From Candidatus Latescibacterota bacterium (GTDB lineage: Bacteria; Latescibacterota; UBA2968), in contig OZ242010.1 in the NCBI GenBank assembly GCA_965204745.1, positions 736,001 to 800,000 on the forward strand: a DNA stretch of 64,000 bases, given 5' to 3'. The notes under the pieces were generated by a model. The model had not been told where the DNA came from and did not search any database. It saw only the letters and a program-made list of their open reading frames with translations. The position numbers and the translations under genes were made by a program. Position 1 is the first letter of the stretch. Each line of letters starts with the position of its first letter. Below are positions 10,391 through 50,701 of the stretch, piece after piece.

Positions 10391-10586
10391 GATCCGCCTT
10401 TCCTCCGCCTTCCTCTGCGCCATCCGTTTAATCCGTTTAATCCGTGATCCGCCTTTTATCCGCGCCATCCGCATAATCCGTTTAATCCGCGATCCGCCTT
10501 TCCTCCGTGCCATCCGCGTAATCCGTTTCCTCCGTGATCCGCCTTTCCTCCGCGCCATCCGCGTAATCCGTTTAATCCGCGATCCG
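10391..10586. repeat. Tandem repeat of about 45 bp (4 copies) built from ATCCG/CTCCG subunits
   Basis: GATCCGCCTT recurs at 10391, 10446, 10491, 10536 (GATCCGTCTT at 10581); related AATCCGCG motifs near 5993 and 21910. Confidence 0.9.
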
Positions 10587-10589
10587 TCT

Positions 10590-10979
10590 TTACTTTTTGT
10601 TTTTTTTGTCGTCCGTCTCGCCATCTTCTTTCTTTTGTTTGCGTTTGTCCTTGAACGCCTTGATTTTTTCGAACAGGCCGGGCGCGTATTTGAGCAAATC
10701 CCCGATAGACATGCTCTTGTCATCCAGTGCAAGCAGTTGGGCCTTGCCCTTTTGAATGACGATAAAGGCCACGGGTTGCACGGATCCGCCGCCGCCCGTG
10801 CCACTGCCGCCGTCGTCCTTTTCGCTCTGTGACCCACCCGCGCCGAAGCCAAAGGAAATTTTGGACACCGGGATGATGGTCACATCGCCTGTGACGACAG
10901 GCTCGCCCACCACGGTTTCGGTTTTCACAATCTCGCGCAATTCGTGCAACATCGTTCTCACCACGTCTTCAATAGCCAT
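10590..10979 (-). CDS. GerW/YtfJ-family protein
   Basis: TETVVGEPV..TIIPVSKISFGFGAGG..GGGGSVQPVAFIVI. Confidence 0.9.
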   Translation of the reverse strand: MAIEDVVRTMLHELREIVKTETVVGEPVVTGDVTIIPVSKISFGFGAGGSQSEKDDGGSGTGGGGSVQPVAFIVIQKGKAQLLALDDKSMSIGDLLKYAPGLFEKIKAFKDKRKQKKEDGETDDKKNKK

Positions 10980-11102: not shown

Positions 11103-11852
11103 TTATTTTTCGGCGGTCAGCGTGGCTTCGCGTTGAACCTTGCGCTGTGCCCACCAAACGCTCGCGGCCAAGCACCCGCCGCGTGCTGCCAATGCGAGGG
11201 CGGCCCACAGCAAGCGCGAGAGATAAACCGAAAGCCGAACGGACCCGGAACCCGCAAAGCGCGGTTGCATAAAATCGGGCGTTAGGGAAATGCGAACGCG
11301 CTTGCCGAGAACGCGCTTGACCGCTTCGACATAGCCGAACAAACGCCCGGTGAAAGCGGGATCGCCCAACCCCACCTCCAAATCCATTGCCGCATCCCGA
11401 AATCGAATCGCGCGCAACAACCGCTTGGCAAATCGCATCACAATGGGGCGCGCATCCGCGGCATAGCCCATGTATTGTTTCGCCTGCGCGTAACGCGACC
11501 GCCATGGCGACTCGGCTACCGGCATCGCATCCGCCGCTTTTTCCGCACGCGCCGCTTCATCGCCCCCTCCTTCGGGATCCCCCTCCGCATCGGATTCGAC
11601 CACTCGCGGCGCAGGTGCCTTGGGCCGCCAAACCGTGCAAGGCCCCAACACCACGCGCCATTGCAACCCGGTATCATCGACCTCGCACACAACGCCGCAC
11701 AGGCCGCCCCATGCCCGCGCAAATCCGGATACGCGGTACGCGTCCTCGCGGTAAAAACCCGCCGCACCGACCCGGATGGGCAAGACGATAAAGCCCGCCA
11801 ACACCGCGAAGATAATCGAGCCAATGCCAATGAAAACTTCCGCGAGCATCAT
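11103..11852 (-). CDS. DUF2953-like membrane protein (usual YtfJ partner)
   Basis: N-terminal TM; GLGDPAFTGRLFG..LTPDF motif; adjacent to ytfJ. Confidence 0.75.
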   Translation of the reverse strand: MMLAEVFIGIGSIIFAVLAGFIVLPIRVGAAGFYREDAYRVSGFARAWGGLCGVVCEVDDTGLQWRVVLGPCTVWRPKAPAPRVVESDAEGDPEGGGDEAARAEKAADAMPVAESPWRSRYAQAKQYMGYAADARPIVMRFAKRLLRAIRFRDAAMDLEVGLGDPAFTGRLFGYVEAVKRVLGKRVRISLTPDFMQPRFAGSGSVRLSVYLSRLLWAALALAARGGCLAASVWWAQRKVQREATLTAEK

Positions 11853-11868
11853 GGATAACCTTTCGCAT

Positions 11869-12175
11869 CTTGTATCTTTGGGCGAGGCACAGGGCATCGC
11901 CTAAAAAGGTGAGAGGTGAGAGGCAAGACGTGAGAAGGCCACCCCTCTCCCCTCTTGCGTCTCCCCTCTTGCCTCTCCCCTCTTGTATCTTTGGGCGAAT
12001 ACAGGGCATCGCCCAAAAAGGTGAGAGGTGAGAGGCAAGACGTGAGAAGGCCACCCCTCTCCCCTCTTGCGTCTTCCTTCTCCCTTTTTGTATCTTTGGC
12101 TTGCGAACCGCCTTTGGGCGGAGATGGGCGGGGACTGACCACTGACTACTGACCACTGACCACTGACCACTGCCT
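11869..12175. repeat. Tandem family B repeats plus ACTGACC heptamer run
   Basis: Unit TGTATCTTTGGGCGA..TCGCCCAAAAAGGTGAGAGGTGAGAGGCAAGACGTGAGAAGGCCACCCCTCTCCCCTCT x2; also at 16075-16155 (rev) and 42369-42455. Confidence 0.9.
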
Positions 12176-12304
12176 CTCGCCTTTTCAAATAGCGAAAAAA
12201 GAAGCCGCAAAGTCAAGCGGTTTTGCCTCTGCACTTGACACGATGGGATAGCGCGTGCAATATATGGCAAATGGCTACAAGGCAACGCGATAAACGGAGA
12301 CTTT

Positions 12305-14140
12305 ATGACCGCACATCGACAGATCGAAACATGGGCCGCGGAAGGACGGATTTCCGCCTCGGCATCGCACGCGCTTTTGCAATGGCTGGCGGACCCGAAA
12401 TTTGCCGATTTTGTGGCCGACATTCAACGGCTCGTACAAACGGGAGATACGGACGAACTCGACGATGCGTTTCGCACCCACATCGAGTTTGGCACGGGCG
12501 GGATTCGGGGCGAGATGGGGCCAGGGCCCAACCGCATCAACCTGCGAACCATTGGCGAAGCCGCGCAGGGCTTGGCGCGGTACATCCTCAACTCGGGCAT
12601 TGCAAACGCCCGGGAAATGGGCGTGGTCATCGCGCACGACACGCGCAACAACTCGGCCCGCTTTGCTCGGGAAACCGCCTCGGTCATCGCCGGGCATGGC
12701 ATTGTCGCCCGCTTGTTTGACGGGCATCGCGCAACGCCCCATCTCTCTTTCGCGCTCCGGCAAACCGGCGCCGTTGCGGGCGTGGTCATCAGCGCGAGCC
12801 ACAACCCGCCTGCGGACAATGGCTTCAAGGCGTATTGGACAGACGGCGGGCAGGTCGTTCCCCCGCACGACAAAAACATCATCGCCGAAGTCATCGCGGG
12901 GCAAAACACGCGCATTAAAAAAATGGACTACGAAACCGGGGTCAAGCGCGGCCTCATCCAACCCCTCGCCGCACCCCTCGACGCGCACTACATCGAAAAA
13001 CTCGCGGGCGTCTCCCTGTCAGACGCGCGGGACATCCGCATCGTCTATACGCCCCTACACGGGGTCGGCGCGACGAGCATTGTGCCCGCGCTTCAAAAAC
13101 TCGGGTATGACCAACTCCACCTCGTCGAAGCGCAAACCATCCCGGACGGGAATTTCCCAACCGTGGCGGGTGGCATTGCCAATCCCGAAGCCCCCGGCAC
13201 ATTCGCGCTGGCAATCGAACGAGCCGCGCAACGCCACGCGGACCTGGTCATCGCCAGCGACCCAGACGCGGACCGGCTCGGCTGCGCGTTGCCCCATCCG
13301 CAACAGGGCTGGCATGCCCGCCCGGAAGAACTCGCCCTCACCGGCAACCAGATCGGCGTGATTTTGTGTCATTATCTCCTCAACGCCCTCAAAACCCAGC
13401 ACGCCTTGCCGACCCAAGGCGTCGTGTGCAAAACCATCGTCACCACGGACCTCATCAGCTTGATCGCCGCGTATTTTGGCATGACCCCGGTGGATAACCT
13501 CCTCGTCGGCTTCAAATACATTGCAGACGTCATCGACAACCTGCAAGCGGACCAAACCTTTGTGTTCGGCGCGGAAGAGAGCCACGGGTACTTGGCGGGC
13601 GATTTTGTGCGCGACAAAGATGCGGCCATTGCCGCGGTCTTGCTCGCAGAATGCGCGGCCCAACTCAAATCGCAGGGCCGCACCGTGCGCGATTACCTCG
13701 ATGAAATTTATCGCACATTCGGCTATTTTTGCGACATCCAAAAATCCGCGTACCGCACGGGCGCGCAGGGCAACGAGGAAATCGCGCGGATCATGCAGGG
13801 CCTGCGCCAAAATCCACCGCGCGCGATAGGGGGGCACGAGGTCATCGAAGTCATCGACTATCAAACCCTCGCGGCGCGCCATTTGAAAACGGGCACCACG
13901 CGCTCGCTCAAAGGCACGGCTGGCAATGTGCTCGCGTTCACCCTCACGGAACGGGGCCACACCCGGGTCACGGCGCGGCCTTCGGGCACGGAGCCAAAGA
14001 TCAAATACTACGTCTCGGCAACTTGGGCGGATCGCGCGGATGTGCCGCGCGCGCGCAGCTCCATTGACCGCCTCGCGGACGACCTCATGCGCGGCATGCG
14101 CCACGCGGCAGAACGCGCCCTTCTATCGGTAACGCCATGA
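12305..14140 (+). CDS. pgm: Phosphoglucomutase/phosphomannomutase
   Basis: FGTGGIRG, SASHNP, DPDADR, GAEESHG, RPSGTEPKIKYY. Confidence 0.93.
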   Translation: MTAHRQIETWAAEGRISASASHALLQWLADPKFADFVADIQRLVQTGDTDELDDAFRTHIEFGTGGIRGEMGPGPNRINLRTIGEAAQGLARYILNSGIANAREMGVVIAHDTRNNSARFARETASVIAGHGIVARLFDGHRATPHLSFALRQTGAVAGVVISASHNPPADNGFKAYWTDGGQVVPPHDKNIIAEVIAGQNTRIKKMDYETGVKRGLIQPLAAPLDAHYIEKLAGVSLSDARDIRIVYTPLHGVGATSIVPALQKLGYDQLHLVEAQTIPDGNFPTVAGGIANPEAPGTFALAIERAAQRHADLVIASDPDADRLGCALPHPQQGWHARPEELALTGNQIGVILCHYLLNALKTQHALPTQGVVCKTIVTTDLISLIAAYFGMTPVDNLLVGFKYIADVIDNLQADQTFVFGAEESHGYLAGDFVRDKDAAIAAVLLAECAAQLKSQGRTVRDYLDEIYRTFGYFCDIQKSAYRTGAQGNEEIARIMQGLRQNPPRAIGGHEVIEVIDYQTLAARHLKTGTTRSLKGTAGNVLAFTLTERGHTRVTARPSGTEPKIKYYVSATWADRADVPRARSSIDRLADDLMRGMRHAAERALLSVTP

Positions 14141-15825: not shown

Positions 15826-16334
15826 AAAGACCCCGATTCGTTTGTGAATTAGGACAGCAAATTCCAAATATCGGAGTTAGCAACCGCAGTGCCATTTATG
15901 TCGATTTTACTCGATTCGATACCGCCCGAACAAATCGACAAAATTTCTTTGAGTCATGACGCGCTGTAAAATAGGTTGCGGGCAGGGCAAATGGGCTTAT
16001 ACTTCAACATGCCTTTCTGACGCCCCGCCCAACCCCCTTCGGTAAGACGGGAGAGGCAAGACGCAAGACGCAAGAGAGGAGTGGCCTTCTCGCGTCTTGC
16101 CTCTCACCTCTCACCTTTTTGGGCGATGTCCCGTGCTCGCCCGAAGATACAAGAGACAAATCGCATGCCCGGGAATGTGAAACGCACACAGCAGGGTGGG
16201 GATGGGACGGGCACGCACGGGTGGCGGGGTTAGGATGGGCAGGGAAACGCACACGGTGGGGCAGGGTAGCGGATGGGATCGCACTTGGGCGGATGAGGGG
16301 AGAGGGGTGGCCTTCTCACGTCTTGGGAGAGAAA

Positions 16335-27070: not shown

Positions 27071-27163
27071 ACGAAAGGCGTGAGAGGGGAGAGGCGAGAG
27101 GCAAGAGGGGAGAGGCAAGAGAGACAGCGCGGCGGTGCTGAACGCCGATAGCCAGTTTTCAAA

Positions 27164-29286: not shown

Positions 29287-29521
29287 GGTGTTCCTCCATA
29301 AAAGGTGTGAGACGGGACGTTGGCTACGCTTGCGCGTGCGCCAGAGTGACGATATGGTTGGGCGGGGTGGACTGACCACTGACTACTGACCACTGACCAC
29401 TGAATATAGCAAATCTCTTTCGTTCGCGCCAAGAAAATGTATCGGGGTTTGCGCTTGATTTTGGGGGGTGGCTTTTCTACATTGTGTTCACGTTTTGGCG
29501 TTTTTGGAGTTCCCATTTTTT

Positions 29522-49249: not shown

Positions 49250-49308
49250 GAGGTGAGACGGGAGACGGGAGAGGCAAGACGGGAGAGGCAAGATACTCTC
49301 TTAAAAGG

Positions 49309-50316
49309 TCAAGGGGTTTTCGGGGTGATTCGATAGAATTTTTCGCCCTCAAAATCTTGGTCATGGCGCAACATGCCCCAGATCGAATGGAGCAACTTTC
49401 GCATCACCGCAACGATAGCCTGCAAAGGTTTCTTGCCGCGGGCGATGAGTTGGTCATAGAAGGCTTTGACATGGCCTTCGTGTCTGATGGCCACCCAGGC
49501 AGGCATATAGAGGGCATGGCGGAGGTACTTATTCCCGGTTTTCGAGATGCGTCTTTGTGGATTGGCGGTTCCGGATTGTTTGGGTTTGGGATCCAGGCCT
49601 GCATGTGCGACCCACTGGGGCGGTTGCATCTCCTCTGGCAAAAGGGTCAACTCGGCCAAGAGCCGCAAGGCACTCGTTTGCGCGATGCCAGGCGTCGAGC
49701 AGAGGCGTTGGTAGGCACGCTTGAGGGGCTCATCGTGCAAAACGAGATCGAGGGCTTGGCTTTCCAAGTATGCAATCCGGCGTTTGAAGTGTCGAATATT
49801 CACCTGAATATCGCGTGCGATGAGACGTGTGCTGCGGATGTGGTAGCTCTGCGCGTGGTTGCGGCTCTGTTCGCGGATGATCTCCTGCTTGAGTTGGTCA
49901 ATGCGTCTGGTGAGGGCTTGCAGTTGAAGCCGTTGCTCGCTCGGCGCTTGCCAAGGCACAAAAGGCATGCGCTCGGCATAGTCGAGGATCAACAACGCAT
50001 CCTTCGCATCCGTCTTCGCCCGTTGCATGCAGGCTTGGGCGTACTTGCTCATCGCTTTGGGATTGACGACCATGACCTTTGTGTGGCGATGCCGATGCAA
50101 GGCCAAGGCCACCCCCAAACTGTAAAGCCCGGTCGCTTCGAGGCACACAGAGACCATGTGCCCGCCCTTCGTGAGCCACTTCAGCAACCGCTTATGCGCT
50201 TGGGGATCATTGGCAAAGGTCGCTTGCATGACAGCTTGTCCGGGTCTGGACAGGGCAACGGACAACGTGCGGGCACTGACATCAATGCCGGCAAAAGCGG
50301 GGTGAGATTTCGACAT
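49309..50316 (-). CDS. IS110 DEDD recombinase
   Basis: Matches copy 1 except five C-terminal residues. Confidence 0.97.
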   Translation of the reverse strand: MSKSHPAFAGIDVSARTLSVALSRPGQAVMQATFANDPQAHKRLLKWLTKGGHMVSVCLEATGLYSLGVALALHRHRHTKVMVVNPKAMSKYAQACMQRAKTDAKDALLILDYAERMPFVPWQAPSEQRLQLQALTRRIDQLKQEIIREQSRNHAQSYHIRSTRLIARDIQVNIRHFKRRIAYLESQALDLVLHDEPLKRAYQRLCSTPGIAQTSALRLLAELTLLPEEMQPPQWVAHAGLDPKPKQSGTANPQRRISKTGNKYLRHALYMPAWVAIRHEGHVKAFYDQLIARGKKPLQAIVAVMRKLLHSIWGMLRHDQDFEGEKFYRITPKTP

Positions 50317-50388
50317 GGGGGCCTCCTGTGATGAGGGGGTTGTAAGGGATCTGGTGCGCGCTCGGGGTCGCGTCCCGACCATTGACGC

Positions 50389-50569
50389 CAAGTCTACCGG
50401 TCTTGTATATGCAGCCTCAAGGGGCTTAGATACTCTTCGGCATAGACCCGGCGGTCGGGGGGCCTATCTTACCTACAAGGTCATCGCCTTCAAGAGGGGC
50501 CGGCCTTCCCCGAGCCGGGCATCAAGATGGCTTATCTCGATACGAGGGCGCAACTCCTAATTAACCCTT
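50389..50569 (-). ncRNA. Bridge RNA, copy 2
   Basis: Reverse complement of 42470-42650. Confidence 0.85.
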
Positions 50570-50701
50570 ACTTCCAAGATACAAGAGGGGAGAAGTGAAA
50601 GGCGAGAGGCCGGGGAATATGAGCCGGAACAACGCACACGGCGGAGCGGCGGCGGGGATGGGCACGCACGGGCGGCGGAGCGGAAGCGGGGGACTGATTC
50701 C

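Follow-up and report, generated by a model that had tools for sequence, protein, structure and literature searches.

We analysed a window of 64,000 nucleotides from a Candidatus Latescibacterota bacterium, comprising bases 736001-800000 of its single 5.48-Mb contig (56.5% G+C; genome coordinates below refer to that contig, C1), in which an intergenic repeat, family B, begins with the same bases as an IS110-type insertion sequence (IS). Family B is built as a mosaic from the host's intergenic repeat modules; it offers the IS a target and is neither a passenger of the IS nor the engine of a feedback loop. The seven nucleotides that repeat and IS share, TGTATCT (hereafter the leader), are best read as a separable unit, which is probably a stub left behind by an IS110 copy. 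The whole explanation that we favour, and consider on balance rather likely, combines a host repeat mosaic, guide-driven landing of the IS, and an origin of the leader as an IS110 deletion stub; the leader is the part worth following up.

Three family B units in the window were grouped by repeat-family detection as one family (D5), with 79-89% identity over 100 nt. Unit 1 (11869-11983, + strand), the reference copy of D5, is composed on direct reading of CT (11869-70), the leader (11871-77, within the 8-mer TGTATCTT at 11871-78), a hairpin resembling repetitive extragenic palindromic (REP) elements (11877-11905), a purine heptamer arm (11903-11938) and a pyrimidine heptamer arm (11939-11983). 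Unit 2 (11982-12089, +) repeats this order, with CT at 11982-83 and the leader at 11984-11990 (TGTATCTT at 11984-91) followed by hairpin, purine arm and pyrimidine arm, and a third GTATCTT, which no CT precedes, lies at 12090-12096 (+); together they make up the tandem region 11869-12100. Unit 3 (42369-42455, +) ends in 9 nt, CTCCCCT-CT, that serve IS copy 1 as left target and core. A fourth family-B-like unit, absent from the original prediction, is located on the reverse strand at 16074-16153 (genome 752153-752074); it contains leader, hairpin, purine arm and turn, and matches positions 1-81 of the 87-nt family B query used below. As had been proposed, the units start with CT-TGTATCTT, the core followed by the opening 8 nt of the IS, and end in CTCCCCT-CT-TG, the IS target, and IS copy 1 sits exactly at the end of unit 3: its left end, TGTATCTTGGAAG, starts at 42456, directly after the CT at 42454-55. 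The junction between units 1 and 2 even reproduces a left junction of the IS. Left target, CT and leader at 11975-11991 (+) form the 17-mer CTCCCCTCTTGTATCTT, every base of which agrees with the true left junction of the IS at 42447-42463.

Family B is one among many combinations of common modules and not a discrete mobile element. Its parts are the TGTATCT leader, a genus-wide GC-rich REP-like hairpin ending in CTAC, a purine heptamer array and a pyrimidine NNNNTCT array that pairs with it. The 87-nt query gave 267 local matches genome-wide, few of them full-length; most span either positions 1-34 (leader and hairpin) or about 35-87 (arrays) alone, so that family B has no constant ends and does not behave as a fixed unit. 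The hairpin, GGGCG(A/G)GCAC..CGCCCCTAC, occurs in 116 copies at up to 3 mismatches. Among the genomes compared (given by G numbers below), the hairpin is present in all 18 of the same genus that were searched (1-522 copies), 15 of which lack the IS, and in 0 of 12 of the neighbouring family. In the search pattern and in the matches it is followed by CTAC on the same strand, GTAG on the other, and GTAG beside a palindrome is a defining feature of REP elements. A search for the REP-associated Y1 transposase (PF01797) found none in the genome, while the control matched in 6 of 14 genomes; "REP-like" therefore refers to shape only. The purine arm (AAAAAGGTGAGAGG...) is found in 86 copies, 23 with a leader within 50 nt upstream and about 57 with the GAGAAGGCC/GACC turn, beyond which the copies diverge, some into a pyrimidine array and others into another module. 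Folded as single-stranded DNA, the unit forms the hairpin and a long imperfect purine-pyrimidine hairpin (-27.3 kcal/mol, z -4.13; none of 200 shuffles was as good).

A further host module bears on where such repeats end. It is present in 148 copies genome-wide, ending GTGGCTAAA(A/C)T(C/T)CCATCT, mostly with CCATCT or CCGTCT as the last bases, and similarity among the copies halts right after ...CATCT, sometimes before unique sequence. The combination of leader, hairpin and GTGGCTAAA...CCAT-CT was considered as a two-ended mobile element and rejected, its end being only an NNNNTCT heptamer with CAT, CGT and CCT variants, and the paralogue search giving it no empty-site support. The module end CCAT-CT is also the point where the 62-nt IS left-end pieces described below stop. 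Because all repeat modules here end in ...TCT, repeat boundaries at CT are not diagnostic in the present genome. The genome-wide boundary check advanced in the original prediction came out as foreseen, with similarity starting at about CT, and constitutes weak evidence for that same reason.

The IS itself is an IS110 element guided by a bridge RNA. Copy 1 (42456-43748, +; 1293 bp including the right-hand CT) consists of a 267-nt non-coding left end (42456-42722), an open reading frame of 335 aa (42723-43730) and a right end that reads ...AGAGAGTAT-CT; the right target and a heptamer array follow at 43749-43800 (+), with TGCCCTG and then a CCTCTTG run. The protein matches DEDD_Tnp_IS110 (PF01548, 1.2e-24) and Transposase_20 (PF02371, 1.2e-19) in Pfam. 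A second copy in the window, at 49270-50593 on the reverse strand (genome 786593-785270), is 99.3% identical, and the genome holds 52 near-full copies, mostly 99% identical, in addition to 96% and 88% subfamilies and fragments. In the assembled contigs of four sequencing runs, joints such as 42450 to 43777 have a shorter side of 20-35 nt and fall within repeats. At 59 left junctions the left target (T)CTCCCCT precedes CT, with C at -5 in 59/59, C at -4 in 58, T at -3 in 56 and CT at -2/-1 in 59/59, whereas the 55 right junctions read T(A/G)CCTCT, most often TACCTCT (22) or TGCCTCT (17). Terminal inverted repeats are lacking, the CT core stands on both sides, and all right ends finish in ...GTAT-CT, as befits IS110-type ends. 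No other IS110 lineage able to own such ends was found in the genome search, in which 57 of 57 PF01548 matches lie at copies of the present IS. The Pfam matches and the junctions thus bear out the earlier identification of an IS110 element with a CT core and the target CTCCCCT-CT-T(G/A)CC.

The 267-nt left end folds at -103 kcal/mol (z -2.6) into two units of stem, internal loop and stem. The target-binding loop (42540-42575, +) was assigned from the fold and from covariation with the flanks. Its 5' side, CCCCTCTTG (42540-48; RNA CCCCUCUUG), has the same sense as the left target, and its 3' side, GTAGGTAAGATA (42564-75; RNA GUAGGUAAGAUA), contains GGTAAG (GGUAAG in RNA), antisense of CT-TACC. 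The donor-binding loop (42602-42638, +) was assigned from the fold and cross-element comparison: its 5' side, AAGAGTATCTA (42602-12; RNA AAGAGUAUCUA), has the sense of the right end, and its 3' side, GCATATACAAGA (42627-38; RNA GCAUAUACAAGA), contains ATACAAG (AUACAAG), antisense of CT-TGTAT. Across four IS variants the target loop varies together with the flanks and the donor loop is nearly constant. Thus the 88% subfamily of the present genome has loop sides GCGCCTCTTG and AAGTAAGATA with flanks CGCCT-CT and TACT, the IS of G016 has ATCCTCCTTG and AGAAAAGATA with flanks ...CC-CT and TTTCT, and that of G018 has CTCGCCTCTG and AGG-GAGATA with flanks CGCCT-CT and CCC(G)TCT. The 57 readable target loops in the genome comprise 8 guide pairs (46, 4 and 2 loops, and five singletons), each with fitting left targets. 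The guide pairs lie mostly at sites that fit them, which, to judge from the loops and flanks, looks like natural reprogramming within one lineage. Rfam 15 gave no match at E up to 1 in 42300-43900, and may hold no bridge RNA model; in 11500-12500 it gave only sub-threshold microRNA-type hairpin matches, none reaching the gathering score.

The target proposed earlier is indeed encoded in the bridge-RNA loops, but the best match is CT-TACC and not the proposed CT-TGCC, which costs one rU:dG wobble against the loop GGUAAG. This preference is reflected in occupancy. With the left target CTCCCCTCT, TACC sites are 15 occupied to 15 empty and TGCC sites 15 to 58 (odds ratio 3.9, p 0.004). The 13-mer CTCCCCTCTTGCC, said to mark perfect unoccupied targets, is exact at both places named, 11961-11973 (+) in the pyrimidine arm of unit 1 and 27100-27112 (-) in a heptamer array outside any family B unit; both read CTCCCCT-CT-TGCC and, given the wobble with the right target guide, are not perfect. 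With the one-mismatch copies at 11947-11959, 12059-71 and 49273-85 (-), the window has 5 matches at up to one mismatch against 0.08 expected, and none of 100 shuffles reached 5.

On these observations the IS lands in the pyrimidine arm, and in many other heptamer arrays, solely through the loop-specified CCCCT-CT-TACC, tolerating TGCC. The genome contains 73 empty CTCCCCTCTT(G/A)CC sites and 51 occupied paired sites. Family B arms are good sites for the IS, yet a minority of all sites: 7 of the 73 empty targets lie within 70 nt past a turn, 7 of the 73 lie within 120 nt past a leader-hairpin, and an IS left end occurs within 130 nt of a purine arm in 10 census rows, which are 8 distinct junctions. 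With so few empty targets near family B, the earlier idea that the repeat seeds new landing pads in a feedback loop is not sustained. The target 13-mer occurs 73 times in the present genome, 11 times in G018, 0 times in G016 and 0-1 times in the other 16 same-genus genomes. By these counts and the loops, each IS variant is matched to whichever type of repeat prevails in its host, whichever of the two came first.

The leader extends well beyond family B. The 10-mer CTTGTATCTT occurs 212 times in the genome (2 times when reversed as a control), and 156 CT-TGTATCTT sites are left once the IS ends are removed. Upstream of these sites C is found at -5 in 138 of 156, the 30-mers otherwise form 121 clusters, and only 17 of 156 have CCCCTCT, the left target in its canonical form. 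At non-IS sites TGTATCT is followed by the hairpin in 114 cases, by a CCTCG(C/T)AGGCAC module in 16, by a heptamer in 13, and by other sequence in the remainder. It has been suggested that the IS110 recombinase mobilises units starting with CT-TGTAT in trans as non-autonomous passengers, perhaps through a single donor half-site, and that their movement spreads landing pads. The start of such units does correspond to the right donor half-site read by the donor loop, similarity among the 156 sites begins at about CT, and the target 13-mer is abundant in the present genome only (73 vs 0-11). Known systems also provide for such movement: in the available parts of the reports, a single half-site can be enough for excision and for insertion (10.64898/2026.08.31.748434), partial IS110 circles reuse one terminus and reintegrate (10.64898/2026.08.14.744561), and ISPpu9 mobilises the ssr9 module in trans (PMC12288879). 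Family B nevertheless has no terminus resembling the right end, nor does one occur anywhere apart from the IS copies, AGAGA-GTATCTT being present 50 times, about the IS copy number. The left target is canonical at only the 17 sites mentioned, right boundaries are not fixed, none of the 55 IS right junctions adjoins a leader, the paralogue search gave no clean unit-length insertion, and empty targets near family B are few. Together with the presence of the hairpin in 15 IS-free genomes, these results do not support the view that family B is a passenger or product of bridge recombination, and we regard the trans-mobilised unit as very unlikely. By analogy with the half-site systems, a CT-TGTAT unit is a conceivable substrate of the recombinase; the present genome holds no retained product.

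The leader is a separable 7-nt unit located at CT|T junctions between modules. One case is the module CCTCG(C/T)AGGCACAGGCGTAGCCTAC, of whose 147 copies 128 directly follow ...CCCC-CT-T or CT-TT, 16 follow ...CCCC-CT-TGTATCT-T, and 3 are preceded by other sequence. Three leader copies have paralogues with identical flanks, 16 nt on the left and 14 nt on the right, minus the 7 nt. Compared by module body, 9 of the 16 leader copies are closest to a leaderless copy; compared by upstream context, 7 of the 16 have a leaderless copy nearest or tied for nearest. Gain or loss of the leader must accordingly have happened several times. When paralogous empty sites were sought, two insertions came up, the 1293-bp IS and the 7-nt unit, all other lengths being traced to array flanks. 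The same junction is one for which the IS has been programmed. Decayed IS copies at genome positions 1263486 and 1433017 sit on ...TTCCCC-CT, and their loops, GTTCCCCCTTG or GCCCCCCTTG with CAGGAAGAGA, spell TTCCCC-CT-TCCT, which is exactly the junction of the CCTCG module; an old IS right-end remnant also adjoins the CCTCG(C/T)AGGCAC module at 5088575. Because leader copies, leaderless copies and decayed copies are found there, the empty, the decaying occupied and the 7-nt states are all present at one programmed site class.

How an IS could leave exactly seven nucleotides is suggested by its ends. An inserted copy is flanked by a direct repeat, GTATCTT(G), supplied at one end by bases 2-9 of the left end and at the other by the right end together with T(G) of the right target. 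Were the stretch between the two repeats deleted, the IS would be lost and left target-CT-TGTATCT-right target would remain; such 7-nt stubs would then multiply alongside the host repeats. We lean slightly towards this origin, in which the leader began as what a deleted IS110 copy left behind and was subsequently spread along with repeats of the host. The deletion route probably operated as described, and it may extend to the leader before the family B hairpin. Deletions of other sizes are preserved in the genome. An 18-nt remnant beside a leader at genome position 2459529 has TGTATCTTGGAAG joined to TATCT. Two 62-nt left-end-only pieces, at the unrelated loci C1:950639-950704 and C1:2089406-2089473, both end in AAGCCAT-CT, one followed by a heptamer and the other by a leader. 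In a single piece of some 205 nt (C1:2972651-2972855) the left end, including the entire bridge RNA, runs directly into the final 7 nt of the right end; it lacks the transposase, has its own right target guide, ACGGGAGATA, and is placed before CCCTTCT. Internal deletions of the IS do therefore occur. The 62-nt pieces resemble the reintegrated partial circles outlined in the accessible portion of 10.64898/2026.08.14.744561. Judged by title or abstract, the papers retrieved on IS110 excision, footprints and non-autonomous forms contain no report of a 7-nt stub.

Close relatives of the IS protein (76-84% identity) were found only in G016 (9 matches) and G018 (19); a 54% relative is in G030, a genome of another family, and the rest are distant. 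The 10-mer numbers 294 in G018, 242 in G016 and 212 in the present genome, then 56 in G001, 37 in G014 and 35 in G009; the remaining 12 same-genus genomes have a background of 6-17, and those of the neighbouring family 1-8. Equal abundance in IS-free relatives, which the original prediction had named as counter-evidence, was thus not observed, the three IS-bearing genomes having 212-294 copies and the 15 others 6-56. By RecG identity to the present genome (G018 92%, G016 88%, G001 85%, the rest 80-82%) the three IS-bearing genomes are closest kin within one subclade, and the association of IS and leader accordingly counts as one event, not three. G016, G018 and G030, with its 54% relative, share the termini of the IS (left TGTATCTTG, right AGAGAGTATCT), and an IS621 donor oligonucleotide in the consulted part of PMC13396178 contains ACAGTATCTTGTAT. 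The termini are thus older than the repeats of this host, and any kinship between IS end and leader would run from the IS to the leader.

The loci of the IS itself are poorly conserved between these species. The flanks of 15 IS loci of G016 and G018 map apart in the present genome at 13 and adjacent at 2. At the two G018 loci that are syntenic here (C1:3725130-3725420 and C1:5170740-5170990) the spacers hold entirely unrelated repeats. Judged from these comparisons, repeats turn over fast, and rearrangement points are where the IS sites lie.

Several observations weigh against a stub origin. Leaders are found in the three genomes G001, G014 and G009 (56, 37 and 35 copies of the 10-mer), in which neither IS protein nor IS DNA was found, and the association of IS and leader across genomes is confounded with relatedness. 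Among the matches listed, no stub has both target halves canonical, no dedicated count of CT-TGTATCT-T(A/G)CC having been made, and this negative stands beside the 73 empty and 51 paired occupied sites. The leader at 4397647, one of the 13 before a heptamer, continues into TGCCTCT and is non-canonical on the left side; by eye, two more leader sites among those matches continue with TACC or TACG. No guide among the 57 loops fits the hairpin flank CT-T(T/C)GGGCG, so for the leader of family B a stub origin is an argument by analogy, and it may have arisen in this manner. The pattern of presence and absence could also be produced by loss of the leader through slippage between the flanking CTT repeats. 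Finally, TGTATCT obeys the NNNNTCT grammar of the host and differs by a single transition from TGCATCT, a heptamer that does occur, so a coincidence is not remote.

The last point leads to the strongest competing explanation, in which TGTATCT is a native NNNNTCT heptamer usually placed by REP-like hairpins, and its identity with the IS end is a coincidence or a by-product of the ...TCT|T... phase. This was the alternative offered in the original prediction, and we hold it tenable, if somewhat doubtful. It accords with the lack of a stub canonical on both sides, within the limits given above, and with the ...TCT ends of all modules, such as the 148 GTGGCTAAA modules. Leaders also head modules where the IS is lacking: in G001 and G009 they head other hairpin modules, and the tandem arrays of G014 mix TTGTATCT in alternation with TTATGTCT and TTGTGTCT, so that the leader looks like a native variant, one of several related octamers. 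In G018, an IS-bearing genome, leaders mostly head the GGACAGGCAC hairpin and the heptamer is doubled in tandem twice. Against it, six IS-free genomes with 17-79 hairpin copies hold the 10-mer at background level (10-17), the leader is found at none of 20 sampled hairpins of the IS-free G008, and each of the three IS-bearing genomes has 4-8 times as many copies of the 10-mer as any other genome. A native heptamer also leaves unexplained the repeated gain or loss of an exact 7-mer at the very junction for which decayed IS copies are programmed. In G016, 3 of 15 sampled hairpins have an adjacent leader-like heptamer (one of them GAGTATCT), 5 have one that lies a heptamer further upstream, and 7 have none. 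One G016 hairpin (contig C1 of G016, 646470-646670) is preceded by GAGTATCTTT, the 8 nt with which the IS right end closes, and not by the usual TTGTATCTT.

A common functional signal would be another reason for the shared bases, for instance a -10-like TATCTT promoter element used by both the IS circle junction and the host repeats. Once the ends were joined, TTGACC of the right end would stand 18 nt before TATCTT of the left end. A promoter scan of 11700-12400 gave 0 sites, and the sequences upstream of the leaders are unrelated (the 121 clusters above) and contain no constant -35 element, making this explanation extremely unlikely.

Bridge-RNA recombinases of IS621 and the IS110 group were reportedly described by Durrant et al. 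in 2024. The present IS resembles IS621 in its DEDD and Transposase_20 protein, its CT core and its non-coding left end with target and donor loops, a likeness in domains, core, loops and termini. It differs from IS621 in targeting a heptamer array instead of an E. coli REP, and in having 8 guide pairs in one genome, each at its own kind of site. The donor termini, ...AGTAT-CT-TGTAT..., are as in the IS621 donor oligonucleotide of the available text of PMC13396178; for the IS621/IS110 group we used the accessible part of PMC13626964 (Hiraizumi et al. 2026) as a comparison.

The setting also recalls the REP elements and bacterial interspersed mosaic elements (BIME) that were, it is said, described as IS110-family targets by Tobes and Pareja in 2006. 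Common to both are a high-copy GC-rich hairpin ending in CTAC, its occurrence in mosaics and an IS110 inserting alongside; unlike in those targets, the genome has no PF01797 Y1 transposase, and the IS core lies in the heptamer arm and not in the hairpin. A stem-loop gate is known for ISPpu10 from the consulted part of 10.64898/2026.03.19.712850. The short IS-derived pieces at independent sites (the two of 62 nt and the 205-nt piece with only the bridge RNA) are comparable to the ssr9 module of ISPpu9, as far as the available text of PMC12288879 describes it, and to partial circles, whereas family B shares only its first 8-10 nt with the IS and has no second end.

Half-match recombination offers a closer parallel for the leader. 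For IS621, the accessible portion of 10.64898/2026.08.31.748434 describes a single donor half-site that drives excision and off-target insertion, with right-donor-only matches at 50 of 168 insertion sites. By its sequence the leader would be such a right-donor half-site, CT-TGTAT, and, counted from the second CT, a partial left-donor half-site, GTAT-CT. Unlike at those sites, no insertion is retained at a leader here (the 0 of 55 above).

In the window, the family B tandem takes up the spacer between two divergent genes. A DUF2953 gene (11103-11897, -), called as the longest open reading frame, overlaps unit 1, and its true start is probably an ATG near 11852; a phosphoglucomutase/phosphomannomutase gene follows at 12305-14140 (+). 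A second heptamer array family, of CTGACCA type (D16), is located at 12127-12180 and 29364-29403; it is unrelated to the NNNNTCT type, and hairpins without a leader often adjoin such arrays. A 12-nt tandem repeat of nine copies (D1, 41341-41484) and a 45-nt tandem repeat of four copies (D4, 10410-10634) are also present.

With 52 near-full copies and 8 guide pairs at sites that their loops spell, this genome provides a natural data set for RNA-guided recombination, and the measurable preference for a perfectly paired over a wobble right target is useful for modelling guide tolerance. If the leader is indeed a deletion stub, a 7-nt signature would trace past IS110 activity in genomes since rid of the element, and the stubs would be standing half-sites for off-target recombination, a matter brought up with regard to genome editing in two 2026 preprints. 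A bolder version, which we consider unlikely, is that a bridge recombinase element writes its own donor half-site into its host, lost copies leaving 7-nt stubs that are copied to about 150-300 per genome in the IS-bearing lineage and remain half-match substrates that could shuffle modules. Feedback through such half-sites differs in kind from the loop of repeat and landing pad proposed originally. If it were true, half-site shuffling could help explain the strong differences in spacers and gene order around IS sites between sister species.

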